Positions 5,311-51,536 of a stretch of DNA of 64,000 nucleotides are shown piece after piece. The notes under the pieces are model-generated. The model was given only the letters and a program-made list of their open reading frames with translations, ran no database searches and had not been told where the DNA came from. Origin of the DNA: Acidimicrobiales bacterium. GTDB taxonomy: Bacteria > Actinomycetota > Actinomycetes > Mycobacteriales > QHCE01. The stretch covers positions 5,225 through 69,224 of the forward strand of contig QHCE01000009.1 of NCBI GenBank assembly GCA_003243955.1, written 5' to 3'. Within the stretch, counting starts at the first letter, position 1. Every line of letters starts with the position of its first letter. A program made the position numbers and the translations under genes.

Positions 5311-5332
5311 GACGTTATGTAAAGACAGAAGT

Positions 5333-5444
5333 GTGCGTCAATCGGTCTCTGCCAAGGCCGCAGGAGCCGCCGCCTACGAAAATGGAGCGCAGCGGAATGG
5401 GTAGGCAAGGTGACGAGAACGCCGGCAGGGGCCGATTGACGCAC
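5333..5444 (+). repeat. Family-2 structured repeat, copy B (complete)
   Basis: It has 21-nt terminal arms GTGCGTCAATCGGTCTCTGCC / GGCAGGGGCCGATTGACGCAC, which pair at 19 Watson-Crick plus 2 G.U positions on the + strand. The core is CAAGGCCGCAGGAGCCGCCGCCTAC...GTAGGCAAGGTGACGAGAACGCCGGCAGG. It fills the rpmF-rnc spacer. Confidence 0.7.
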
Positions 5445-5447
5445 GCT

Positions 5448-5630
5448 CTACGCAACTTCGAGGATCTGGCGGCCCTTATACATGCCACAGGTCTCACACA
5501 TCACATGCGAAAGTTTTGGCGCCCCACACTGCGGGCATGCACTGTAGTTGACCGGTTTGATCTTGCTGATCCAGTTCGCACGCCTCGAGCGAGTGTTCGC
5601 GCGAGACATTCGGCGTTTGGGGACGGCCAC
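5448..5630 (-). CDS. rpmF: 50S ribosomal protein L32
   Basis: MAVPKRRMSRANTRSRRANW... with CPQCG...CETCG zinc-ribbon cysteines. Confidence 0.92.
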   Translation of the reverse strand: MAVPKRRMSRANTRSRRANWISKIKPVNYSACPQCGAPKLSHVMCETCGMYKGRQILEVA

Positions 5631-15948: not shown

Positions 15949-17004
15949 TTATGGCTGCCCGATACCAGAGACGGGGCTGCCACCCGCACCATCCATCGAA
16001 GCTACGTGTATGGGACTGCCGGGTTGTGATGCGTGCACCACTTGGCCACCTCCGATGTACAGTGCGACGTGGAAAGCAGGCGAACCGTAGAACACCAGAG
16101 CGCCTGGTTGCATCTCTGAGCGGGACACTTTTTTAACAACGTTGTACTGGAGCTGGGCCGAGTGCGGCAACGATTTACCACCGGCGCGCCATGCCGCCAT
16201 AGTCAGACCGGAGCAGTCATACAAAGCGGGGCCCGCGGCACCCCACAGGTACATCTTTCCCTGTTGCGCTAGCGCAAATTGCACCGCCTTGGCCGCGTCG
16301 CCTACGCCTTGACCTGTGTAAGCGACGGCGCCATACACTCTGTCGCGGACACCTCCGGCGAGTTGCGAACGTAACGCCTGCCATTTGGCCAGGTCTTCAG
16401 TGATGGAGCTTTGCTTCTTTCGAACGATGTCAAGCTGCTTTTTTTGTTCCGTCATCTCATCGGTGATGGACTTTTCTTTCCCCTCCAACGCGCGCTTGGC
16501 TTTAGCCAGCTTCGCAATCTTTGTCTGACGGTCTTGCTGAATTTGTTGCAGTACCGTGAACTGCTCAATCGTGGAGGAAGCATTCCGACTGCCCGCAATC
16601 AACGACATGGGTTCGAGGTTGCCTTGGCTATATACAAGGTTAGCGAGCTTGCCGACCTCAGCTTGATGTTTGGTGACCTCTGAGCGCGCGGCCTGGACCT
16701 GCGGTTGAAGCTGGGCCGCTGTGTCTTGGCTCTTCTGCACAACCACACGTGCCTGATCAAACTCTTCGGTAGCCGCAGCCATCTTGCTCTGCAGCTCATC
16801 AATCTGCTGCCGGGCCTGGCTCACCGTGGGCTCAGTCTTCACTCCGCCCCGCACGGCCTGGCTAACGCTCGCAGCCGCACTGTCGCTTCCGGCGAAGACG
16901 AGGACGGCACAGAGCGCACAGTTCGCAAAAAAAGCTAGCGCGCGGGTGGGGAAGTTGGCTCGGGACAATGCCACGAGTACGTACTCACTTTCTGCAGCGG
17001 ACAT
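15949..17004 (-). CDS. Secreted NlpC/P60 peptidoglycan endopeptidase with N-terminal coiled coil (RipC-like)
   Basis: It has a hydrophobic N-terminus, then about 200 aa of coiled coil, then a C-terminal NlpC/P60 domain: YLWGAAGPALYDCSGLTMAAW...HVALYIGGGQVVHA. Confidence 0.85.
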   Translation of the reverse strand: MSAAESEYVLVALSRANFPTRALAFFANCALCAVLVFAGSDSAAASVSQAVRGGVKTEPTVSQARQQIDELQSKMAAATEEFDQARVVVQKSQDTAAQLQPQVQAARSEVTKHQAEVGKLANLVYSQGNLEPMSLIAGSRNASSTIEQFTVLQQIQQDRQTKIAKLAKAKRALEGKEKSITDEMTEQKKQLDIVRKKQSSITEDLAKWQALRSQLAGGVRDRVYGAVAYTGQGVGDAAKAVQFALAQQGKMYLWGAAGPALYDCSGLTMAAWRAGGKSLPHSAQLQYNVVKKVSRSEMQPGALVFYGSPAFHVALYIGGGQVVHASQPGSPIHVASMDGAGGSPVSGIGQP

Positions 17005-17310
17005 TTGCGTATACCGGGGGTGGCAAACAAGAGGGCAACGGTACGGAGTAGCTCAAAGCCCCGCAACCCCCTGTGGCGTGCCTCACGAAGACTGATCTCT
17101 GGTCAGAAAAACGAACAAAAAACCACAATTTGCCCAAATGCATGAAGACCTAATGCCGCAAATAGAACAATCTGCCCCAGGCACAGTGCTGTCGACCCTA
17201 CATCCCTGCCCGACTCCTTCAACCCAGACCCCAAGTCGTCAGGCGGGCACGGCCCTCTTTTCCCACAACTTCTACGAAGTTCCCCAGATATGTTTCTCGC
17301 TCTAACCATT

Positions 17311-17450
17311 ACCCCTGGAGTCGGAGCGGAGGCGCTGCGGGCGGGGATGAGATGCAAGGCGGAGAAGGAGACGCATGTGGGCTATGCGCGACGACGACGC
17401 CGCGGATCGCCGCGTCAACCACGCTATGCGTCTGCACAATCAGGGGCTGG
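17311..17450 (+). repeat. Family-1 repeat, diverged core-only copy
   Basis: GATGCAAGGCGGAGAAGGAG-ACGCATgtgggctATGC-GCGACGACGAC-GCCGCGGatcgCCGCG...CAGGGG is collinear with the family-1 core. The hairpins keep their position but have different sequence. No terminal closing arms were recognised. Confidence 0.45.
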
Positions 17451-18339
17451 TCAATACCCCGAGGATAATGCCGATAGCAAACAAGGCCAGCAGAGTCCCC
17501 ATCACTAGCAGTGCGACCCAGCCGCGCACACCCTGCGCCTCTGGCTGTGCGGGTGCCGAATGCCCTATAATAGCACGTTCATGTAAGCCAGTGGGCGACC
17601 ACCAACTTGGCTTAGTGGAGGCCGCGAGGCGCTTCGTCGGGGGCTGAGCGGGAGGAGAGGCATCTACGAGTCGGGCCGGTGCGGCATCTGGGGGGGTGCT
17701 GCTTAAGCTGTCACGGATAGCTTGGGCCAGTACATGACTAGAAGCGCTTAGCGCACTGTATTCAGTCGAGGGGGGCGGATCGTTATCGACACTCGAATTG
17801 TTATCTACTCCCGAGACTGCAACCGAACCAAAACCTAAGGCGGATACTTCATCGGGTAGCTCGGTGGGGGAAGACTCCATAGGCTGCGCCGGCAGCACTC
17901 CACCATCACGTTGGGCGTACAACTCTTTCTCCCGCTGCCGCAGCAAAGCGGCCTCATGGCCAAGCTGCAGCCACGGCCGCCCGGCTCGTACCGCTGCTAC
18001 CCCAGTTGCGGGAACGCCGAGCACGAATAGGGCGCCCAGCAGCAGACCGATGCCGCTTTCGCCTCGAACAAAACTCATCAGCGAGCCGACTGATAGGACA
18101 ATGAGCGCGAGTGCGGCAAAGGCGAGCTTGAAGAAAACTCCGACTGACAAGGCGGAGCGCATACGCTGTCGTAGTTTGCCCAGCCGCGTGCAGATCTGCT
18201 CTAGCTCTAGCTCTACGCCCTGCGCTTGGTTGGCGCGATGCCGCCCAGCCGATGGTGTGGACTCGTCGAAAGGATCGAAATCGGCATCGAATACCGATGC
18301 ATAATACGCCGATTTTCTGGTTTGAGTGTCGCTCCTCAC
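17440..18339 (-). CDS. Hypothetical membrane protein (299 aa)
   Basis: ORF-track ORF with TM segments (VGVFFKLAFAALALIVLSVGSL; WVALLVMGTLLALFAIGIILGVL) and a Pro/Ser-rich disordered middle. I recognise no family. Confidence 0.45.
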   Translation of the reverse strand: MRSDTQTRKSAYYASVFDADFDPFDESTPSAGRHRANQAQGVELELEQICTRLGKLRQRMRSALSVGVFFKLAFAALALIVLSVGSLMSFVRGESGIGLLLGALFVLGVPATGVAAVRAGRPWLQLGHEAALLRQREKELYAQRDGGVLPAQPMESSPTELPDEVSALGFGSVAVSGVDNNSSVDNDPPPSTEYSALSASSHVLAQAIRDSLSSTPPDAAPARLVDASPPAQPPTKRLAASTKPSWWSPTGLHERAIIGHSAPAQPEAQGVRGWVALLVMGTLLALFAIGIILGVLTSP

Positions 18340-24407: not shown

Positions 24408-24562
24408 ACGCCTAGTCTGTCACTTCACGCACCAGATCCCGCCAAGCCCTCTAGGGTAAGGAAAAGCGGAATTGAGCACAGCAGCACTGAATCGTGACCA
24501 CCTGTACGAGTTTGAACGATATACCGCGATTTGAGATACCAGAGGCAGACGGAGCGCCATTA

Positions 24563-24723
24563 AGAGGTCGCGCGGGTTGGTCGTTCGTTGCGAGGTGGTG
24601 CCTGGTCGAGGATGGCAAGGCGGAGGAGGAGTTCATGCTGGATGCATGGGCGACGACGACAACACAGCCAGGCGAAGTGCCAGGGGACACCGCAGTAGAA
24701 CAGCACCAATCCGCGCGACCTCT
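24563..24723 (+). repeat. Family-1 structured repeat, copy 1
   Basis: The closing helix AGAGGTCGCGCGGGTTGGT / ACCAATCCGCGCGACCTCT is 19 bp with one G.U. The core is GGCAAGGCGGAGGAGGAG, hairpin CATGC-tggat-GCATG, GGCGACGACGAC, ...GTGCCAGGGGACACCGCAGTAGAACAGC. It is near-identical to 41057-41232. Confidence 0.78.
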
Positions 24724-24745
24724 CAGCAAGAAAGGCGGCTTGCGC

Positions 24746-26374
24746 ATGGCCGTCAAAAAACTGAAGGCCGCCAGGGCCACAGTCTGCGGCAATAGTCATG
24801 GGCTCGTAGGCGCCGCAGTCGTGCTAAGCCTACTGGCCGTACTGTCCATGCTCACCGGTTGCGGTGCTGCTCATCGCGCATCTGCGACCAAAGATTTCGC
24901 CGCGATTACTGTTCCCACCGGAATCCCGACACCGGCGCAAGCAACGCTGCGCCATGGCAGCTATACCCAAACCCGGAGTGGACTGCACATACGCGTAGAA
25001 CTACTACATCGCATCGCCTTAGGTGACATCAGCGGCGCTGCCGCGCCAGACACGGCAGCGCTTGTGCAGACCAGCCTGAACTTGGATTCAGCCAGTGCAG
25101 CACTGCGTTTCCTCAGCGTCATTGTGCTGCGCAGCGCACCCCACAATCGGCCTCGCCAGTGGCAGAGTGCCCCTATCGTCAGTAACGCCCTCCCGCTCGG
25201 CGCGGGTGCGCGGTTAAAATCCATCGCGGTCAAACCGGCTGAGCTCCTGCACGGGCCTACACTGCGGGTGAGCTCAACCCAAATCATCGTTGGCTACGAG
25301 CTACCTGACAGCGAACACGTCGAGCAGATGCAACCCCGGCGGCTCACCGCAACACTGGTCGGAAACACGCTCGTTCCGCTAGAGGACGTGTCGACACACG
25401 AGCATTCCATGTATCGGGTAGCAGCACCTACCGTGCTGGCACTTAGCGCTTTAGGTGGAAAAGATCATCAACCCGATGGTGCCGGAGAAACACACGTGCA
25501 CGGTTTCGTGGCATACGGCGGAAACCAGCGCTACGCCATCTCGGTGCAGAAGGGATATCAGCTGCGGATCGACACCGCGGCGAGTTCGCCATCAAGCTCA
25601 CAGCAGCTACGGCTGAGTGTGAGTGGAGACGACGGCACTGTGCTGCAGAATGCTGGTAGAAGCGCATCGAACTACAGCAGCCCGGTGCCCAGCACCCAGA
25701 ACTATCAGCTCGAAGTCTTCAGCGCCACCGCCGATCCGGCCAGCTACATTCTCACCGTGAACGTGACCGCACCTTCCCCATCACCCTCGAGCGGGAAAAT
25801 TCTGCCCGAGCGTGCCACGAGCGGCAAAATACTACATCTGACATTTGACGACGGGCCTAATCCGCGTTTCACCGGTCAAATCCTCGACGTGCTCGCGAAG
25901 TACGGCGCAAAAGCAACGTTCTTCGTAGTGGGAAAGAACGTCGTAGAGCACCCGGAATGGATTGAGCGAGAGCTCCAATCCGGACATACCGTCGCCAACC
26001 ACAGTTATAGCCACCCTCGGTTGACGAATATCAGCCAACAGGCCTTCGATGCCGAAATTGACCAGACAGCGCAAGCCATCGGTCCGCATGGGGCCAAGTG
26101 TTTAAGGCCGCCCTATGGAGCCGTGGATGCACAAGTGCGGACCCGAGCTGCCGACAAGGGCTTAGCCGTGGTGCTCTGGGACGTAGACACCCAAGATTGG
26201 CGGCGGGGACCACCCGAGCAGATCGCGCAATCGGTGATCGACGGAGCCGAGACCGGCAACATCATTTTGATGCACGACGGCGGTGGTAACCGCGACAACA
26301 CCGTAAAAGCGCTCGACATAGCGCTAGCGAAGTTGTCCGCGCAAGGCTGGAGTTTCCAACCGATCTGTACATGA
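24746..26374 (+). CDS. Lipoprotein with C-terminal NodB-type polysaccharide deacetylase domain
   Basis: It has a signal peptide with lipobox (LSMLTGC) and NodB motifs LTFDDGP, HSYSHP and LMHDGG. The track ORF starts at 24494 only because the upstream repeat is open in frame. Confidence 0.8.
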   Translation: MAVKKLKAARATVCGNSHGLVGAAVVLSLLAVLSMLTGCGAAHRASATKDFAAITVPTGIPTPAQATLRHGSYTQTRSGLHIRVELLHRIALGDISGAAAPDTAALVQTSLNLDSASAALRFLSVIVLRSAPHNRPRQWQSAPIVSNALPLGAGARLKSIAVKPAELLHGPTLRVSSTQIIVGYELPDSEHVEQMQPRRLTATLVGNTLVPLEDVSTHEHSMYRVAAPTVLALSALGGKDHQPDGAGETHVHGFVAYGGNQRYAISVQKGYQLRIDTAASSPSSSQQLRLSVSGDDGTVLQNAGRSASNYSSPVPSTQNYQLEVFSATADPASYILTVNVTAPSPSPSSGKILPERATSGKILHLTFDDGPNPRFTGQILDVLAKYGAKATFFVVGKNVVEHPEWIERELQSGHTVANHSYSHPRLTNISQQAFDAEIDQTAQAIGPHGAKCLRPPYGAVDAQVRTRAADKGLAVVLWDVDTQDWRRGPPEQIAQSVIDGAETGNIILMHDGGGNRDNTVKALDIALAKLSAQGWSFQPICT

Positions 26375-34835: not shown

Positions 34836-36917
34836 ATGCAGGGGATGTTGCTCGAAAAGCGCTACCGAATTCGCGGCAAAATAGCCCAGGGCGGCATGGC
34901 CTCGGTGTATGAGGCCTTCGACGAACGACTTGAGCGCCTGGTCGCCGTAAAGATCATGCGTCCGGAGTACGCAACCGACGCAGTGTTCGCCAGCAGGTTC
35001 ATGCGTGAAGCCCGATCGACCGCGGCGCTCAATCACCCACACATCGTCGCAGTGTTCGATCAGGGTCACCACGACAACACCATGTTCCTGGTTATGGAGA
35101 AAGTAGATGGCACCACGTTGCGCGGGGTGCTGAAGCAGCGAGTGCGGCTGAACCTCGCCGAGGCGATCGGCGTAATAGAGCCTGTACTTGCGGCGCTAGC
35201 CCAAGCACACGAGCGGGGCATCGCGCACCGCGACGTGAAACCAGAAAATGTTCTGATCTCCTCGACTGGAATCGTGAAAGTCGCGGACTTCGGCCTTGCC
35301 CGCGCGGTAGAGAGCACTCATCAACTCACCAGCCGCAACACGCTGCTAGGAACCGTCGCCTACTTGGCTCCCGAGCAGATCACCAACGCTGAATCTGATG
35401 CCCGAAGCGACGTCTATGCCGTCGGAATTATGCTATATGAAATGCTCACCGGGGTTAAGCCGCATCAGGGAAGCTCGGCGATGCAGGTCGCTTACCAACA
35501 TGTGAACTCCGATGTGCCGCCACCATCAGACGTTGTGGCACAGCTTCCACCACAGTTCGACGAGCTTGTTGCCGCTGCCACTCGGCGCGACCGCACTCAG
35601 CGGCTGGCTTCCGCCGGGGTTTTCCTCACCGCGCTACGTCAAACTCGGCTTGCTCTAGGCATCACTCCATTGCTTGTTCGGGCCGCTGATGAAGTGAACG
35701 GCGCGACTGAAGCTACGCCACCAGACCCACGATCGCGGGAAAGTGCCTCCGGACTGCCTCCTGCCGCCTCAGGTCAGCAGGAGTCCGCAGAGCCGCAGGA
35801 GGAGCAATCTACTGCTCCACGAAACGATCCCGGCCAGAGCCGGAAAGCACCCAGTACGGGCACCTCAGTGATGCCGCCGCTGGGCCAGCAGCAACTAGGC
35901 GGCTCACTCACAGGAATGCATCGCGGAACCGCCGCCCCAGAGATTTATCAGCCGCCCGAGATGCCATCCGAGCCTCCGCCGCTGGCATCCTCGGCAGAGG
36001 GCGCGCGGCAGGAAAAAGATAAAAAACGCAGACTCCTCATGACCGCGTTGGCCGCGGCAGTGGTGCTGGTACTGCTAGCTGGGGGGTTGCTGTGGTGGTT
36101 AGGCGGGCGCAACGACGTTACCGTTCCCCAGTTCATCGGGTTGGATAAAACCGCGGCGGAAAGCGTTGCTAAAAAAGCGGACATCAAGGTTAGCTACGGC
36201 ACATCCAAATTTTCTGATTCGGTGAGTGAAAACGTCGTATTAGAGCAGAAGCCCGGTGCAAAACAACGCGTGGGTTCTGGCGACACCATCACGCTGGTGC
36301 TCTCGGGTGGGCCAAGGGTCCGCAGCGTACCTCAGGTGCGCGGCAAGACTCGCGACGAAGCTACAAAACTGCTGGAAGCCGAGCATTTCACGCCCGTTGT
36401 CAGCGAAGAAGAGAGCCAAGACATACCCAAAGACAGTGCAATCCACACAGATCCTGGCGAAGGTAGGAAACTTAACGTCGACTCGCAGATCCGGTTAGTA
36501 ATCAGCAAGGGGCGCGGATCTACCCAAGTTCCTGATGTGGTGGGTCTAAGTAGGGCTGACGCCGTAGCTTTGCTCGCCGAGCACGGACTTAAAGCTACGT
36601 TCACTGAAGAAACAACCGACAATGACCCGAATAGCAATGCCAGAATCGACAGTGTGCTCCGGCAACAGACGGCACCTAACTCCACAGTAGAAAAGGGCAG
36701 CGAAGTTGTGCTGGTGATCTCTGGTGGCCCCGCTCAGGTTCAAGTACCCAACGTCCGCGGCTTGGATTGCGCACAGGCACGTGAGCTTCTACGCGGCGCG
36801 GGATTGAAAGCCAACTGTCAAGGTGCAAGTAGGGGCAAAGTCTTTTTCCAGTCACCCAACGCTGGTAGTACAGCAGAGCGAAAAAGCTCCGTGGCACTGT
36901 TCACGTTTCCCATTTAA
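34836..36917 (+). CDS. Ser/Thr protein kinase with four C-terminal PASTA repeats (PknL/PknB-like)
   Basis: It has Hanks motifs GGMASVYEA, VAVKIM, HRDVKPENVL, DFGLA and APE, a TM segment (LLMTALAAAVVLVLLAGGLLWWL), then four PASTA-like units. I chose ATG 34836. Confidence 0.88.
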   Translation: MQGMLLEKRYRIRGKIAQGGMASVYEAFDERLERLVAVKIMRPEYATDAVFASRFMREARSTAALNHPHIVAVFDQGHHDNTMFLVMEKVDGTTLRGVLKQRVRLNLAEAIGVIEPVLAALAQAHERGIAHRDVKPENVLISSTGIVKVADFGLARAVESTHQLTSRNTLLGTVAYLAPEQITNAESDARSDVYAVGIMLYEMLTGVKPHQGSSAMQVAYQHVNSDVPPPSDVVAQLPPQFDELVAAATRRDRTQRLASAGVFLTALRQTRLALGITPLLVRAADEVNGATEATPPDPRSRESASGLPPAASGQQESAEPQEEQSTAPRNDPGQSRKAPSTGTSVMPPLGQQQLGGSLTGMHRGTAAPEIYQPPEMPSEPPPLASSAEGARQEKDKKRRLLMTALAAAVVLVLLAGGLLWWLGGRNDVTVPQFIGLDKTAAESVAKKADIKVSYGTSKFSDSVSENVVLEQKPGAKQRVGSGDTITLVLSGGPRVRSVPQVRGKTRDEATKLLEAEHFTPVVSEEESQDIPKDSAIHTDPGEGRKLNVDSQIRLVISKGRGSTQVPDVVGLSRADAVALLAEHGLKATFTEETTDNDPNSNARIDSVLRQQTAPNSTVEKGSEVVLVISGGPAQVQVPNVRGLDCAQARELLRGAGLKANCQGASRGKVFFQSPNAGSTAERKSSVALFTFPI

Positions 36918-37090
36918 GAGCGCTCGGTAATTGATGCTGTTCTACTGCGGTGTCCCCTGGCACTTGTGTCTCGGCTGTAGCCGAGGATATTGTCGTCGTC
37001 GCCCATACCTTCTCGGTATGAACTCCTCCTCCGCCTTGCCATACTCGACCAGGCACCACCTCGCTACGAACGATCAAATGCCGAACACTC
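36918..37090 (-). repeat. Family-1 structured repeat, copy 2 (inverted orientation, diverged)
   Basis: It is the reverse complement of the family-1 core, with rewritten but still pairing stems. It begins on the nucleotide after the kinase stop codon. Confidence 0.72.
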
Positions 37091-37154
37091 TAACCGGCCG
37101 CAATCGTGAGCTAAGCCACTTCCCGTTGCATAATTCTGATCTTAGGGTCACTTT

Positions 37155-37172
37155 AGTTAGGTAAACCTAACT
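37155..37172. promoter_or_regulatory. Palindromic operator candidate upstream of bfd-bfr (iron-regulator box-like)
   Basis: AGTTAGGTAAACCTAACT is a perfect 8+2+8 palindrome containing TTAGGT/ACCTAA half-sites like DtxR/IdeR boxes, but with different spacing. It ends 15 nt before GTG 37187. Confidence 0.4.
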
Positions 37173-37186
37173 CAGTCGGGTGGACC

Positions 37187-37387
37187 GTGTACATCTGTAT
37201 CTGCGCCCAAGTCCGCGAATGCGAACTCCGCGATGTCATCACCGCCGGTGCGCGCAACGTTGATGACATCGCGCAAGCCTGCGGCGCAGGAACCGGTTGC
37301 GGCTCCTGCACACGGCGAGTGCAAGCCGTGCTCGGCAAGTTAGCCCTACCTGAGCTCAAGAGCCTGTGCCCGGCAGAACTACGCTGA
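37187..37387 (+). CDS. bfd: Bacterioferritin-associated ferredoxin (BFD-like [2Fe-2S])
   Basis: MYICICAQV...CGAGTGCGSC cysteine pattern, directly upstream of bfr. Confidence 0.85.
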   Translation: MYICICAQVRECELRDVITAGARNVDDIAQACGAGTGCGSCTRRVQAVLGKLALPELKSLCPAELR

Positions 37388-37447
37388 ACCCACTATGCGG
37401 CTGCCGGTGCTCGCCGGTGCCGAGCACTAGTGATCAGGGACGGTGTC

Positions 37448-37927
37448 ATGCAGGGCGATCCAGGAGTCTTAGAATTTCTCAACGAACAACTCACCGCGGA
37501 GCTCACCGCGATCAATCAATACTTCTTACATGCAAAAATGCAAGAAAACTGGGGTCTGGGCAAACTTGCGGCGCACACCAAAGCTGAATCACTGGATGAA
37601 ATGCGGCATGCCGAGATCATTACCGACCGCATCCTCTTCCTCGACGGACTTCCGAACTATCAGCGGCTATTTGCTGTGCGGATCGGCGAAACAGTGGCTG
37701 AGCAGTTCAGCTGCGACATGCTGATCGAGCAGGAGGCCATCGACCGGCTGCGCCGAGCGATCGACCACTCCCGATCAGTAGGTGACGTAACCTCGGCGAA
37801 GTTGTTCGAAGACATCCTCGCCGACGAGGAGCATCACATCGATTACCTGGAAACTCAGCTGGAGCTGATCGCTAAGCTCGGCGAACAGCTGTACCTAAGC
37901 AGCTTAGTGGCGCATCCCACCGAGTAG
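37448..37927 (+). CDS. bfr: Bacterioferritin
   Basis: MQGDPGVLEFLNEQLTAELTAINQYFLHAKM...EMRHAEIITDRILFLDG...EEHHIDYLETQL. ATG 37448 lies inside the track ORF. Confidence 0.92.
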   Translation: MQGDPGVLEFLNEQLTAELTAINQYFLHAKMQENWGLGKLAAHTKAESLDEMRHAEIITDRILFLDGLPNYQRLFAVRIGETVAEQFSCDMLIEQEAIDRLRRAIDHSRSVGDVTSAKLFEDILADEEHHIDYLETQLELIAKLGEQLYLSSLVAHPTE

Positions 37928-37960
37928 TCCTCTTCTACTTCACGGTGGTTACCACCGCGC

Positions 37961-38275
37961 TTAGCCGCGAAACGGTACCGCTGTGAGCTTAATGAGTAAT
38001 TCGCTGTTGTCGGCTGCCGCGGCGCGGTTCGGTTTGTGCACCCCACAGCGCTGACACTCGTGCAGCACCACGTAACGGCCTCGCTCATAGCGAGCCGCTA
38101 CTGGACGCATCAGGCCACCACATTCAGCGTCGCGGTCTCCTGGAGCGTTGTCTACGTGGCGTGACCATAGGCACGCGGAGCAATGGTTCGTGAAACCCGA
38201 GCCGACTACGCTGCGCCCGCACGCGCCGCAGATGAAATCCTCGACACGGCGCTGAAACCGCGGCCCCGTAGTCAT
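37961..38275 (-). CDS. RNHCP domain zinc-ribbon protein
   Basis: FICGACGRSV...FTNHCSACLWSRHVD...CGGLM...HECQRCG. Confidence 0.7.
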   Translation of the reverse strand: MTTGPRFQRRVEDFICGACGRSVVGSGFTNHCSACLWSRHVDNAPGDRDAECGGLMRPVAARYERGRYVVLHECQRCGVHKPNRAAAADNSELLIKLTAVPFRG

Positions 38276-38288
38276 CCTGATACCTCTG

Positions 38289-39620
<1,332 letters not shown>

Positions 39621-39647
39621 CTACAGTCTGAGCCGTTGGGCGAACGC

Positions 39648-40673
39648 TCACCCAAAGAAGACCTCAGCTTCGGCCAAACGCTCCATCGGAACCGTCTTGA
39701 GCTCTCGCGTAGCTTCCTCCAACGGAACCCGGATGATGTCAGTACCGCGCAACGCAACCATCATGCCCCAGTTCCGGTCATGCGCGGCGTCGATGGCGTG
39801 CAGGCCAAATCGGGTGGCCAACACCCGATCGTAGGCGGTAGGTGAGCCACCACGCTGCACATGCCCAAGCACTACCGCGCGCGACTCTTTACCAGTCCGT
39901 TCCTCAATGGTTTGGGCAAGCCACTGGCCAATTCCACCGAGCCGAACGTGACCAAACGCATCCTTCTCCCCGCTGAGCAGCACCTCTGCTCCTTGGGCAG
40001 GCAAGGCACCTTCGGCTACCACCAGGATAGGCGAGTACTGGGTGGCGAACCGGCTCTCCACGTGCTTGATCACCATGTCTAGATCGAACGGACGTTCCGG
40101 CACCAAGATCACGTTCGCGCCTCCAGCAAGCCCGGCATGCAATGCTATCCATCCAGCGTGGCGCCCCATTACTTCCACCACCAGCGCGCGGTGATGGCTC
40201 TCTGCCGTGGTGTGCAACCGGTCGATGGCTTCCATACACACCGTCACCGCAGTGTCGAAACCGAAGGTGTAGTCCGTGGCGCCTAAGTCGTTGTCAATAG
40301 TCTTAGGCACACCGATGACCGGCAAACCCTCGTCAGTGAGGCGCTTGGCCACGCCAAGGGTGTCTTCCCCGCCGATAGCGATCAACGCGTCAATACCCGC
40401 GGTACTCACATTGCGTTTAATTCGATCCGCGCCGCCATCAACCTTGAACGGATTGGTCCTTGATGAGCCCAAAATTGTGCCACCCCGCGGCAAAATGCCC
40501 CGTACTTGCGGCACACCCAACGGCGTAGTGTTTAGCTCCAACGGCCCCCGCCAACCATCACGAAACCCAACGAACTCGTGACCATAAACGCCTACGCCTT
40601 TACGAACGACCGCTCGAATGACCGCGTTGAGCCCCGGACAGTCGCCACCACCCGTGAGTACCCCGATGCGCAT
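39648..40673 (-). CDS. pfkA: 6-phosphofructokinase
   Basis: MRIGVLTGGGDCPGLNAVIRAVV...IGGEDTLGVA...PKTIDNDL...MGRHAGWIAL. Confidence 0.92.
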   Translation of the reverse strand: MRIGVLTGGGDCPGLNAVIRAVVRKGVGVYGHEFVGFRDGWRGPLELNTTPLGVPQVRGILPRGGTILGSSRTNPFKVDGGADRIKRNVSTAGIDALIAIGGEDTLGVAKRLTDEGLPVIGVPKTIDNDLGATDYTFGFDTAVTVCMEAIDRLHTTAESHHRALVVEVMGRHAGWIALHAGLAGGANVILVPERPFDLDMVIKHVESRFATQYSPILVVAEGALPAQGAEVLLSGEKDAFGHVRLGGIGQWLAQTIEERTGKESRAVVLGHVQRGGSPTAYDRVLATRFGLHAIDAAHDRNWGMMVALRGTDIIRVPLEEATRELKTVPMERLAEAEVFFG

Positions 40674-40776
40674 GAATCCGTTACTCCTTCATAGTTAGGT
40701 CTAGACCGATATGGATCGATACCGCACAGCTTGCCACTAACGTCGATTACGAGTTCCGCCGGGCGTTAAAGGGTAT

Positions 40777-40946
40777 CTAGTGTTGTGTAATCGATATCGT
40801 CGTGTGTGTGCTGGGGCTCAGGCGGCGCCTCGCGGCGTTGTCGAAATTTCGGAGGTAGGACACCGCTACCTGAAAATTCTCCGCCTTGCGATCCATCCAC
40901 CTGAACAACCAGCACCCAGAACGGAACATCGATTACACAACACTAG
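40777..40946. other. 170-nt long imperfect hairpin with perfect 19-bp termini (single copy). It could be a 6S-like ncRNA or a MITE-like palindrome.
   Basis: The termini are CTAGTGTTGTGTAATCGAT (40777-40795) / ATCGATTACACAACACTAG (40928-40946). The inner helices are GTGCTGG/CCAGCAC and TCAGG/CCTGA, and the apex is GGTAG-gacaccg-CTACC centred at 40862. Confidence 0.5.
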
Positions 40947-41056
40947 TGCCGTGCCGGGCGGCGGGAAAATTCCGCAGAGCTCGAAAAAAACATGCCCCCA
41001 AGTTTCGCCAAGCTCACGTCAGCTGAGTAACAAATCTGCAAGGATCACTACCACTA

Positions 41057-41232
41057 AGAGGTCGCGCGGGTTGGTCGTTCGTAGCGAGGGCGAAGTTGGC
41101 TAGCGCAGTCCTGGTCGAGGATGGCAAGGCGGAGGAGGAGTTCATGCTGGATGCATGGGCGACGACGACAACACAGCCAGGCGAAGTGCCAGGGGACACC
41201 GCAGTAGAACAGCACCAATCCGCGCGACCTCT
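41057..41232 (+). repeat. Family-1 structured repeat, copy 3
   Basis: It has the same termini and right half as copy 1. The left arm carries a different or inserted segment (GCGAGGGCGAAGTTGGCTAGCGCAGTCCTGG). Confidence 0.78.
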
Positions 41233-41314
41233 CAGCTAAGAGTGTCCAACCTAATTCATGCGGCGCGCATCTGTCGGATAGTGATTGCCGCCAACGGGTG
41301 CGAAAGGATCGGGT

Positions 41315-46910: not shown

Positions 46911-47006
46911 GGCTCTGCCAAGGCCGCAGGAGCCGCCGGCCTACGAAGAAAGTGGAGCAAGGCGGCTCAAAACATGTAGAACGACGGCAGGGACCGATTG
47001 GTGCGC
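46911..47006 (+). repeat. Family-2 structured repeat, copy C
   Basis: GGCTCTGCCAAGGCCGCAGGAGCCGCCGGCCTACGAAG...GGCGGCTC...GTAGAACGACGGCAGGGACCGATTGGTGCGC. It lies between convergent genes and ends 3 nt before the hemW stop. Confidence 0.6.
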
Positions 47007-47008
47007 GC

Positions 47009-48313
47009 TCAAGGGTTCAGCTGAGCGAGGACGGTGTCAGCAAGTAGCCGACCGCGTAGCGTGAGGCAGGCGCGACCAGCGGTATATGCGTCGGGGCGGA
47101 GCAAACCGTCGGCCACGGCGAGCACTGCGCCGTCCTGGCCCGCGGCCTCCAGCTGGTGCAGCGGATATCCCTCTACAAGCCGCAACCGCAGCATCAGATC
47201 CTCATCGCGGCGCTGCCGCAGAGTGAGCAGCTCGCGAGCCTGTGCCGGTGAGCTACCTCCCGCCAACCGGGAAGCATAAGCGGCTGGGTGCTTTACATTC
47301 CACCAGCGCACACCACCCACGTGGCTATGCGCACCAGGACCAAGCCCCCACCAATTGCCGCCCCGCCAATACAGCTGATTGTGTCGACATCGATCCTCGC
47401 TCGTGCGGGCCCAGTTCGAGATTTCATACCAGCCCATCCCCGCCTCGCCGAGTATCTGTTCGGCGAGCAGATACCGGTCTGCCAGCGTGTCATGATCTGG
47501 GGCGGTCAACTCGCCACTACGCACTTGGCGCGCGAGCCGGGTTCCCGGCTCCACAGTAAGCGCATAGGCCGATATGTGATCGGGCTTAGCCGACACGGCT
47601 GTGCGCAAGGACTCCAGCCAATCGGTATCAGTCTCGGTGGGAGCACCGTAAATAAGATCTACATTCACGTGGGTAAATCCCGCTTGACGCGCCTGCGCGG
47701 CCGCGGCTACGGCGCGCCCAGGGGTATGGCGCCGGTCCAGTGTTGCCAGAACGTGCGGCATCGCGGACTGCATACCCAGCGAAATTCGAGTAAAACCAGC
47801 ATCTACCAGAGCAGCCAAACTGCTGAAGTCCACCGACTCCGGATTGGCTTCCGTGGACACCTCAGCGCCCGACGCGAGGCCAAAAACACTGTCCAGGCGA
47901 CGCAGAATCGTCGCCAAGTGCGATGCGGGTAACAATGTGGGGGTACCCCCACCGAAGAAGACCGTATCTATCTGCGGCAGCCGCGCCTCCGGCTTGGTGC
48001 CCAGCACCCGGCTGGCAAGCTCGATTTCGGCAAGCACGGCGCTGAGGTAGGAGTCGATGTCGGCCACGGTGCCTGTGGGGGCGGCGTGAGCTGCTAACTC
48101 GCTGAGCGTATAGGTGTTGAAGTCACAATATCCGCAGCGTGTAGCACAGTAGGGCACATGTACATAGACGCCGAAATGATCGGCGGGCTGACCCTGTTCC
48201 TCCCTTTGCACACCCTCCTCTCGCGCGTGCTCCCAGCGCAGTCCTGCTCGCGTGGACGTAGGCAAGCTGCCATCGCTGGGGGCTGGTTCACCTTCAGGTA
48301 GCTTTGCGGACAT
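47009..48313 (-). CDS. hemW: Radical SAM heme chaperone HemW / oxygen-independent coproporphyrinogen oxidase-like
   Basis: It has the motif GVYVHVPYCATRCGYCDFNTY (CxxxCxxC). The start is uncertain: ATG 48313 is chosen, GTG 48211 behind GAGAGGAGG is an alternative, and the track ORF runs to 48391. Confidence 0.8.
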   Translation of the reverse strand: MSAKLPEGEPAPSDGSLPTSTRAGLRWEHAREEGVQREEQGQPADHFGVYVHVPYCATRCGYCDFNTYTLSELAAHAAPTGTVADIDSYLSAVLAEIELASRVLGTKPEARLPQIDTVFFGGGTPTLLPASHLATILRRLDSVFGLASGAEVSTEANPESVDFSSLAALVDAGFTRISLGMQSAMPHVLATLDRRHTPGRAVAAAAQARQAGFTHVNVDLIYGAPTETDTDWLESLRTAVSAKPDHISAYALTVEPGTRLARQVRSGELTAPDHDTLADRYLLAEQILGEAGMGWYEISNWARTSEDRCRHNQLYWRGGNWWGLGPGAHSHVGGVRWWNVKHPAAYASRLAGGSSPAQARELLTLRQRRDEDLMLRLRLVEGYPLHQLEAAGQDGAVLAVADGLLRPDAYTAGRACLTLRGRLLADTVLAQLNP

Positions 48314-50993: not shown

Positions 50994-51368
50994 ATGACAG
51001 CAAAACGGGAACAACCGCAGAAGGCGCAGATAACTTTTGGGAAGTTCGAGAACGTTGACCTGAGAGTGGCGCGTGTGACGTCAGCACCGCTAGCTGAGGG
51101 TACTCGGTTTCCTTGTCGAGTGATCACACTTGAGCTTGGCCATCTAGGGCAGCGTACCTCGGTCGGGCAGTACGCACTGCATACCGAAGCTGAACTTGTT
51201 GGCAAAAACGTTGTTGCCTGCATCAATCTGGGCCAACGAGAGATGGGTTCATACACATCTGAGGCTTTGGTATTGGGCGCCCCGCATCCCCAGAGCCCCG
51301 AGGACCAGTCCCAGGCCACCCCACTGTTCGTCTCGCCAGATGCTACTGCGGGCGACCAAGTCTTTTAA
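50994..51368 (+). CDS. tRNA-binding domain protein (CsaA-like)
   Basis: ITFGKFENVDLRVARVTSAPLAEGTRFPCRVITLELGHLGQRTSVGQ. I chose ATG 50994. Confidence 0.72.
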   Translation: MTAKREQPQKAQITFGKFENVDLRVARVTSAPLAEGTRFPCRVITLELGHLGQRTSVGQYALHTEAELVGKNVVACINLGQREMGSYTSEALVLGAPHPQSPEDQSQATPLFVSPDATAGDQVF

Positions 51369-51371
51369 CTC

Positions 51372-51476
51372 AGAGGGTGTGCCAAATAGACCCCTGCCGG
51401 CGTTCTCGTCGCCTTGTCTACCTTCGTAGGCGGCGGCTCCTGCGGCCTTGGCAGATGCCCTATTGGCGCACCCTCT
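51372..51476 (-). repeat. Family-2 structured repeat, copy D (inverted orientation)
   Basis: Its terminal arms are AGAGGGTGTGCCAAATAGACCCCTGCC / GGCAGATGCCCTATTGGCGCACCCTCT. The core is the reverse complement of copy B. It lies 60 nt downstream of the antitoxin-like gene, on that gene's strand. Confidence 0.7.
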
Positions 51477-51536
51477 GACCATCCCCTACGAGCACCCCTA
51501 GCGGGTCAAGGTATTGCCTGCAAGATTCTGGCGGGC

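Follow-up and report, generated by a model that had tools for sequence, protein, structure and literature searches.

We analysed a stretch of 64,000 nucleotides (nt) from an Acidimicrobiales bacterium (contig QHCE01000009.1 of assembly GCA_003243955.1, positions 5,225 to 69,224 of the forward strand; hereafter the window), in which an element at positions 17304-17454 of the plus strand (the candidate) lies antisense to both of its flanking genes. These encode an NlpC/P60 hydrolase and a protein of 299 amino acids (p299). The candidate appears to be a divergent and probably long-retained member of a family of mobile hairpins, referred to here as family 1. The locus contains the following features:

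15949-17004, minus strand: NlpC/P60 hydrolase gene, downstream, its start preceded by the candidate at a distance of about 300 nt
17304-17454, plus strand: candidate, a divergent family member by end-to-end alignment to the family model (cmsearch, 40.4 bits, E about 1e-6)
17354-17370, plus strand: purine box GCAAGGCGGAGAAGGAG, an exact match to the family 17-mer with one G>A change relative to the canonical GGAGGAGGAG
17372-17388, plus strand: apical hairpin CGCAU-GUGGGCU-AUGCG, at the same position as in the other window copies and different in sequence
17388-17398, plus strand: GAC box GCGACGACGAC, with the usual following AAC missing
17401-17414, plus strand: second hairpin CGCGG-atcg-CCGCG, corresponding to the family's inner right arm (consensus CGCCGCGAGGCGCCG)
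17440-18339, minus strand: p299 gene, 299 amino acids, no Pfam match, upstream; the right end of the candidate includes its last codons and its stop codon

A first-pass annotation of the window had proposed that this region is a cryptic fourth core collinear with family 1 and overlapping the 3' end of a minus-strand gene. The overlap was confirmed. To the proposed collinearity, the obvious objection is that GC-rich purine tracts may look alike by chance. The 17-mer GCAAGGCGGAGRAGGAG (R at one position) matched the window at four places (17354+, 24615+, 41124+ and 37039-), where none was expected from 100 dinucleotide-preserving shuffles of the window, and the collinearity therefore stands. Each of the four occurrences is followed after 17-20 nt by GCGACGACGAC; taken alone and with one mismatch allowed, GCGACGACGAC was found 7 times against 2.9 expected, which is not significant. 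The G>A variant in the purine box of the candidate is also present in two loci from elsewhere, L092 and L107 (numbers prefixed with L denote sequences other than the window). As for the number of copies, the candidate belongs to the family, and it is one of at least five in the window, not the fourth, since a copy missed by the 17-mer search scored 75 bits. The other four copies are:

24556-24730, plus strand: full-length copy (111 bits; fold z-score -7.2), 16 nt upstream of the start of a polysaccharide deacetylase gene
36911-37097, minus strand: full-length copy with an extra nested hairpin, abutting the stop codon TAA of a PASTA kinase gene (36915-36917); this site is empty in L001
40773-40950, minus strand: fifth copy, missed by the 17-mer search (75.1 bits), with CTAG termini
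41050-41239, plus strand: full-length copy, 100% identical to the 24.6-kb copy over 127 nt, with a 16-nt insertion in the left arm

The copies at 40773-40950 and 41050-41239 share one divergent intergenic region (40674-41284). The 16-nt left-arm insertion of the latter (the GCGAAGTTGGCTAGCGCAGT region, 41089-41110) is absent from the otherwise identical 24.6-kb copy.

A covariance model of the family (R1) was built from 32 copies of other genomes and two window copies, with the candidate left out of training. The candidate aligned to this model with 8-nt deletions in each strand of the outer stem and without the AAC, and its full-length score was significant; the E-values of this model are rough, and that of the candidate was computed over the 128 kb searched. 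Both the 17-mer and the 11-mer of the apical module are exact in the candidate. The candidate is a true homologue of family 1.

Both hairpins had been described in the first-pass annotation as retained at the family positions with different stems. For the apical hairpin this held: 5 base pairs (17372-17376 with 17384-17388) stand between the two boxes, placed like the family's apical hairpin, and the stems are CGCAU/AUGCG in the candidate, CAUGC/GCAUG in the 24.6-kb and 41.1-kb copies and CAUACC/GGUAUG in the 36.9-kb copy. The second hairpin is present as described. It is not a family feature, as only 17 of 116 members have a local hairpin directly 3' of the GAC box, and 6% of GC-rich windows have one by chance. 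Nor is the AUG of the apical hairpin, which was found in only 40 of 118 family members. An optional nested hairpin just 3' of the GAC box was noticed in L016, L041, L113, L029, L093 and the window copy at 36911-37097, and this nested-hairpin sub-family differs between the window and L001 by such an insertion of 12-13 nt.

The closing arms of the candidate had been reported as absent, which proved essentially right. Its core alone (17355-17405) scored 33.2 bits, so that the arms contribute about 7 bits to the full-length score, compared with about 40 bits in the 24.6-kb copy (71.6 bits for the core alone and 111 bits at full length). The fold z-score of the candidate against shuffled sequence was -1.0 on either strand; the three full window copies are imperfect hairpins of about 170-185 nt with z-scores of -4.3 to -7.2. 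Compared with family arms, the candidate's arms did no better than shuffles, equally good matches being reached by 58 of 300 shuffles for the left arm and by 68 of 300 for the right arm. A by-eye resemblance of these arms to the sub-family of L100 and L024 was ruled out by shuffled controls. The long closing hairpin is missing, only a short outer stem (CCCCTGG/TCAGGGG) being left of it, and in the model alignment the termini read TTA, then CCCC...GGGG, then CTG, with no Y-TA-G...C-TA-R ends. Because it has neither TA termini nor a significant closing stem, the candidate appears to be no longer mobile.

The history of the candidate was followed in its nearest relatives, which share the gene order GDH - p299 - NlpC/P60 and whose NlpC/P60 proteins are 58-65% identical. 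A homologous element occupies the same intergenic place in the same orientation in L242 (54.1 bits, E about 4e-10). L249 has the core directly after the orthologous gene, with the contig end inside the element, and L243 has kept the left arm and the right half. The apical hairpin is nearly identical in the window, L242 and L249, and the second hairpin is conserved in the orthologues as well (CGCGGC-AGATC-GCCGCG), a feature of the locus and not of the family. Between the window and L242, 117 of 144 aligned columns are identical (81%) across the arms, the core and the apical hairpin, compared with 29-41% of the four-fold degenerate sites in three flanking genes, which are saturated; for the GDH gene, identity in DNA sequence is 72%. 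Indels between the two elements are 1 nt long, and the candidate therefore holds no conserved reading frame. The right end of the L242 element is still CTAG and coincides with the stop codon of the upstream gene, the typical insertion geometry of the family. Because the candidate has outlived synonymous saturation while active members turn over within about 5% divergence, it would be under purifying selection and exapted.

A second conserved block was seen at about 17005-17092 on the minus strand, just upstream of the NlpC/P60 start, with the sequence ACAGGGGGTTGCG...GACTCCGTACCGTTGCC...GTTTGCCAC.CCC. It is kept in L242 and L243, the sequence between it and the candidate is not kept, and it has no Rfam match. 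This block may be a leader or 5' untranslated-region element.

Next, we investigated the family to which the candidate belongs. A first scan with the pattern AAGGCGGAGRAGGAG-N10-40-GCGACGACGAC, covering one genome per species, found at least 118 loci, almost all of them in Actinomycetota and several genomes having multiple loci. The hosts among the loci listed were Mycobacteriales, Nocardia, Rhodococcus, Kribbella, Streptosporangiaceae, Microbispora, Streptomyces, Pseudonocardia, Jiangella, Sporichthyaceae and others. Cultured carriers include Kribbella sp. NBC_00889, Streptosporangium oxazolinicum, Nocardia tenerifensis and Rhodococcus sp. NPDC059179. A second, independent scan of metagenomes gave at least 120 loci; plasmids yielded one weak match and phages none. 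Members with AT-rich arms (TAGTACAGCGAAAATTA...) were seen in metagenome contigs L165, L190, L199 and L222 and in a fifth, L163, from a human-gut assembly. They keep the same apical flanks and have the common middle AGGAATGAGGCGTAGCGGTGGCTACGGCGATTGA, which suggests that the family reaches hosts of lower GC content. One pattern match, L175:2540-2820, was discarded as it lies in a tandem array of about 120-nt units and is not a hairpin element. Rfam 15 gave no match for the window at gathering score and none for 24480-24800 at E<=10; on 18 family loci from other genomes it returned tRNAs only and nothing for the element. No description of the family was found in the searchable literature. The family is apparently undescribed, actinobacterial and very widespread.

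At almost every locus, the core forms the tip of a long hairpin, the arms of which differ between copies yet remain complementary, and the ends of the element read cTAG...CTAg. An alignment of 34 diverse full-length copies gave one hairpin of 41 pairs, 36 of which show compensatory double changes. This is the stem covariation for which the first-pass annotation had suggested a check. Paired cells amounted to 91% in this alignment, compared with 64% in shuffles and 31-55% with partners slid, and the covariation score was 0.68 against 0.20, a value reached by none of 500 shuffles. Boundaries were set by a strict terminal-stem criterion, as those from RNAfold over-extended into GC-rich flanks. 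No reading frame or start codon is conserved among copies. Orientation relative to flanking genes is unbiased (same/same 22, opposite/opposite 26, convergent 17, divergent 9), and no recurrent neighbour gene (transposase, TnpB or reverse transcriptase) was found, at most 9 of the 118 listed loci sharing any gene family, with varying sides and strands.

Within the family, sequence conservation is highest in the apical region, with the stems covarying freely. The order of this region is GC-AAGGCGG, G-C pairs separated by tandem G.A pairs, a small variable hairpin, and CGAC-AACGCCGC; the GGA and GAC boxes (GGAGGAGGAG opposite GACGACGAC) face each other in the stem. As the first scan fixed the purine and GAC boxes, their invariance among its loci is circular. 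However, positions outside the search pattern (GC before AAGG, AACGC after GAC, and loop CGG) showed conservation of 90% or more, the mean column identity being 53%. The metagenome scan fixed only the flanks (GCAAGGCGG-N25-55-CGACAACGCCGC), and only 20 of its 125 instances had the canonical GGAGGAGGAG/GACGACGAC middle. Other middles were changed on both sides together (AGGAATGA...CGATTGA, AGGAGGGAG...CGACTGA and AGGAGTGGCCGATAC...GTATCGGCCGCGA), keeping the arrangement of G-C and tandem G.A/A.G pairs or substituting Watson-Crick pairs. The fifth window copy is of the latter kind, two of its three GGA/GAC units being swapped for AAUUUU/AAAUUU. As read from these sequences, the GGA/GAC boxes are one variant of a broader helix at the apex, whose more deeply conserved signature is GC-AAGGCGG...CGAC-AACGCCGC. 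Among apical loops, a GGA triloop with a C-G closing pair was the most frequent, and GNRA and UUCG loops were not seen.

The first-pass annotation had suggested that the core, and not the whole element, is the conserved unit. Arms were kept where the core was point-mutated (L048), replaced (L013) or absent (L016:305-417), and all of 102 pattern-selected instances passed the strict closing-stem scan except the candidate and L079, the latter showing CTAG ends by eye. Because arms are kept without the core, closing stems are near-universal, canonical middles are few in the flank-only scan and conservation between orthologues spans the arms, this idea is unsupported; the propagating unit is the whole hairpin. 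The observation of the candidate is confirmed, and its interpretation is partly supported.

The ends of the elements were then examined in 39 cleanly bounded members. The base before the left TA was C in 32 and T in 7, the first base of the element was G in all 39, the last base was C in 36, and the base after the right TA was G in 28 and A in 8; positions further outward were unbiased. The median length between the TAs was 161 nt. Terminal inverted repeats are present (termini seen include TA-GGGCGTGTC and TA-GTGCC), and the termini are better conserved than the mid-arms, yet they differ between lineages, and the end 4-mers differ within the same element in 15 of the 39. These junctions fit TA duplication within a YTAR target, mostly CTAG. 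IS630/Tc1-mariner elements duplicate TA (PMC2170065), as do IS630 and ISY100 in particular, and IS630 prefers a TA within CTAG according to Tenzen and Ohtsubo (1991), as cited in PMC2170065; the family resembles them in both respects. With G as its first base and C as its last, an inserted element would regenerate TAG on both sides, and many copies therefore lie exactly on the stop codon of a gene. The nearest boundary of an open reading frame is very often the terminus of an element, with the terminal TAG or TAA doubling as stop codon on either strand; in the 36.9-kb copy, the PASTA kinase stop codon lies within the terminal TTAA. Adjacent copies sharing one CTAG (...CCTAGGG...) were observed from L033:3815-3990 onward, from L067:589-763 onward and in L118, which is expected if each insertion makes new CTAG targets.

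Direct proof that the elements of the family are mobile came from reciprocal filled and empty sites. In L001, a Mycobacteriales metagenome-assembled genome with flanks 91-95% identical to the window, the window element at 36918-37095 is absent (site A), and the L001 element at 531-693 is absent from the window (site B). Site A reads CCCATTTAAGTGG when empty (L001) and CCCATTTAAG[AGCGCTCGG...CCGAACACTC]TAACCGG when filled (window), so that TA (or TAA) is present once in the former and twice in the latter; a 3-bp TAA reading is possible. The 100% identity of the 24.6-kb and 41.1-kb copies over 127 nt fits recent movement. Empty sites were also sought in other assemblies of the same strain, both of which were identical to the window. 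In a second assembly of the organism, contig breaks fall exactly within two elements, L120 corresponding to window 36965-41236; contigs L244 and L245 start 37 and 57 nt upstream of NlpC/P60, and L249 ends inside the orthologous element. The elements fragment short-read assemblies.

We consider it probable that the candidate is a copy of an ancient, MITE-like (miniature inverted-repeat transposable element) non-autonomous mobile hairpin, which was immobilised long ago and then held by purifying selection. Elements of the family would insert as whole hairpins of about 161 nt at the TA of a YTAR target with duplication of the TA, and the TA/CTAG junctions suggest that they are most likely mobilised in trans by IS630/Tc1-mariner-type transposases. 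One such ancestor of the candidate would have lost its mobility features and then been retained; it would now most likely act in cis between the 299-amino-acid gene and the NlpC/P60 gene. The properties expected of a MITE are found in the family: it is short, non-coding, multi-copy and dispersed at non-orthologous sites, and it has terminal inverted repeats, TA duplication with a preference for CTAG, and insertion polymorphism at the two reciprocal sites.

Several observations weigh against this explanation. The orthologous loci L246, L247 and L248 are without the element, L247 keeping only GAGTCGGAGCGGAG, and because of these three loci any role of the candidate is not universal. The consensus of three species folds alike on both strands (-30.1 kcal/mol for sense and -32.3 kcal/mol for antisense, with 4 and 3 compensatory pairs), and three or four orthologues are too few for proof of conserved structure or of strand choice. 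Scans of the candidate locus found no promoter- or terminator-like consensus. As regards the family, about 1.5 Mb of DNA was searched and yielded neither a transposase nor an autonomous partner with matching termini; the motif-based and generic searches looked for such termini at a distance of 0.7-3.2 kb from each other. Local indels blur site B, and both this site and the window sub-family end in ...CTCT-CA-G, not TA, at the right; as CA replaces TA at some right ends, TA duplication is not clean in every copy. The junctions also fit equally a single-strand mechanism inserting 3' of YTA with its own terminal CTA. Finally, a strand-specific fold, as described below, is not expected for a DDE-type MITE. 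Two sequences that came up as possible autonomous partners were rejected: L230:3353-5166 is a palindromic contig with the same open reading frames on both strands and so an assembly artefact, and L175 carries an unrelated 1.1-kb segment without a transposase-sized open reading frame.

The strand-specific signal was found by aligning each left arm to the reverse complement of its right arm, using symmetric DNA scoring without structure prediction and excluding the core. Mismatches of the G.T type numbered 424 and those of the A.C type 95 (about 4.5 to 1), and purine-purine mismatches were far above pyrimidine-pyrimidine ones. Counted per lineage (51 arm lineages of less than 80% identity), the G.T type was in excess in 46, in deficit in 2 and tied in 3 (p = 8e-12); the independent metagenome sample gave 74 G.T against 29 A.C. 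The sense strand, which carries the purine box, folded more stably than its antisense in 83 of 83 elements, also when only the arms were considered, with a median difference of -25 kcal/mol under RNA parameters and -7.6 under DNA parameters. As each G.T is an A.C on the other strand, no such imbalance would arise in a double-stranded inverted repeat. A single-stranded form of defined polarity, either RNA or single-stranded DNA (ssDNA), would thus have shaped the family, and the purine-box strand must fold as a single strand, which cut-and-paste of the classical double-stranded kind does not call for.

This signal raises the possibility that the family is no DDE-type MITE and acts instead through a single strand of defined polarity, be it an ssDNA hairpin handled by a strand-specific enzyme (as for IS200/IS605, REP-RAYT or integron attC) or a small structured RNA gene between inverted repeats, with the apical tandem-G.A module as the site of protein recognition. 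The excess of G.T, G.G and G.A over A.C, C.C and C.T, the greater stability of the sense strand, the joint variation of the two halves of the apical module and the lack of a transposase nearby all speak for such a mechanism, as does the prevalence of the C-G-closed GGA triloop, GNA triloops being hyperstable in DNA. We nevertheless regard it as unlikely: symmetric junctions of the form Y-TA-G...C-TA-R, together with a preference for CTAG, make up the textbook pattern of IS630, the architecture is one long hairpin that takes in the termini and not a pair of subterminal hairpins, and no conserved internal promoter was seen among the copies. The unbiased orientation relative to host genes, hard to square with read-through RNA, argues together with the missing promoter against that form of the idea. 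We offer only tentatively the view that the elements would form a new class of Actinomycetota mobile element, a mobile structured RNA gene or an ssDNA-intermediate hairpin transposon recognised through its apical helix of G-C and tandem G.A pairs, whose 17.35-kb copy would have been domesticated as a structured cis-regulatory element by the cell-wall hydrolase gene.

That the candidate is instead a decaying relic without function, its arms lost neutrally and its core surviving by chance, seems very improbable to us. Its weak, family-unlike arms, its low fold z-score and its missing TA termini are what decay would leave behind. However, the L242 element has kept its identity across core and arms far above that of four-fold sites, the same element stands in the same orientation in four species, and active members turn over within a much shorter divergence; decay is largely refuted by the L242 comparison. 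A chance resemblance of GC-rich purine tracts, or a short conserved peptide (KAEEE...GDDDN), can be practically discarded: the codon strings GGAGGAG and GACGAC are frequent where genomes are GC-rich, and the one-mismatch count of GCGACGACGAC is not itself significant, but the shuffles and the model score contradict chance, and a protein-coding origin is refuted by box spacings that vary by non-multiples of 3 (17-21 nt), by the one-nucleotide indels between orthologues and by frames and start codons that are not conserved among copies.

The MITE-like explanation can also be judged against known systems. RUP of Streptococcus pneumoniae and Correia/NEMIS of Neisseria are bacterial MITEs of the IS630/Tc1-mariner type. 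Like these, family 1 consists of short, non-coding, dispersed, multi-copy hairpins flanked by TA, often found at gene ends and polymorphic in presence between close relatives. Unlike them, it has terminal repeats that vary widely by lineage around an apical module of about 40 nt conserved across orders, stems with compensatory evolution and the 4.5:1 excess of G.T over A.C, and no cognate transposase in the DNA searched. ERIC/IRU elements of enterobacteria are imperfect palindromes of about 127 bp with a conserved central region, found in transcribed intergenic DNA in either orientation, some copies being conserved at orthologous sites. Family 1 shares with them the imperfect palindrome, the conserved centre and some retention at orthologous sites. 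They differ in that there is no sequence relationship, the hosts belong to another phylum, and ERIC/IRU elements are conserved over their full length, not just in an apical module carried on variable arms.

REPs are 20-40 nt long (about 100 nt as REPINs), mostly proteobacterial, with GTAG at the foot of the hairpin, and IS200/IS605 ends bear two separate subterminal hairpins without a duplication. For REP/REPIN elements with RAYT (TnpA_REP) and for palindromic elements derived from IS200/IS605, the mobilising enzyme, a Y1 transposase, is encoded elsewhere. Family 1 is like REP/REPIN-RAYT and IS200/IS605 palindromes in being a hairpin repeat for which the fold of a defined strand matters, with CTAG as foot tetranucleotide in place of GTAG. 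It is unlike them in being a single hairpin of about 160 nt with symmetric TA junctions; the architecture of IS200/IS605 and REP-RAYT was not found, as one hairpin includes the termini and no neighbouring protein recurs. As in exapted (domesticated) MITE copies, one copy is fixed at one locus while its relatives turn over. In comparison with exapted MITEs that act as cis-regulatory or RNA elements, the candidate is antisense to both flanking genes.

If these interpretations are correct, actinobacterial genomes, including those of genera mined for antibiotics and of relatives of pathogens, hold a large unannotated family of mobile hairpins that break short-read assemblies and occupy stop codons and positions upstream of genes. 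The combination of DNA-transposon junctions with strand-specific signs of a single-stranded form would pose a concrete question, open to testing, on the propagation or use of MITE-like elements, and the tandem G.A apical module would be a candidate protein-binding motif. The candidate itself would be a clean natural example of exaptation, outlasting the saturation of synonymous sites.

A related hairpin family (family 2), with the apical module GCCAAGGCCGCAGGAGCCGCCG...GCGACGAGAACGCCGGCAGG, is present in the window as well, in about four copies near 2.3, 5.3, 46.9 and 51.4 kb:

about 2253-2330 and about 46914-47010, plus strand: further family 2 copies
5320-5456, plus strand: family 2 copy, its apical module reading GCCAAGGCCGCAGGAGCCGCCG...CAAGGTGACGAGAACGCCGGCAGG; score of 26 bits with the family 1 model
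51335-51512, minus strand: family 2 copy; 26 bits against the family 1 model

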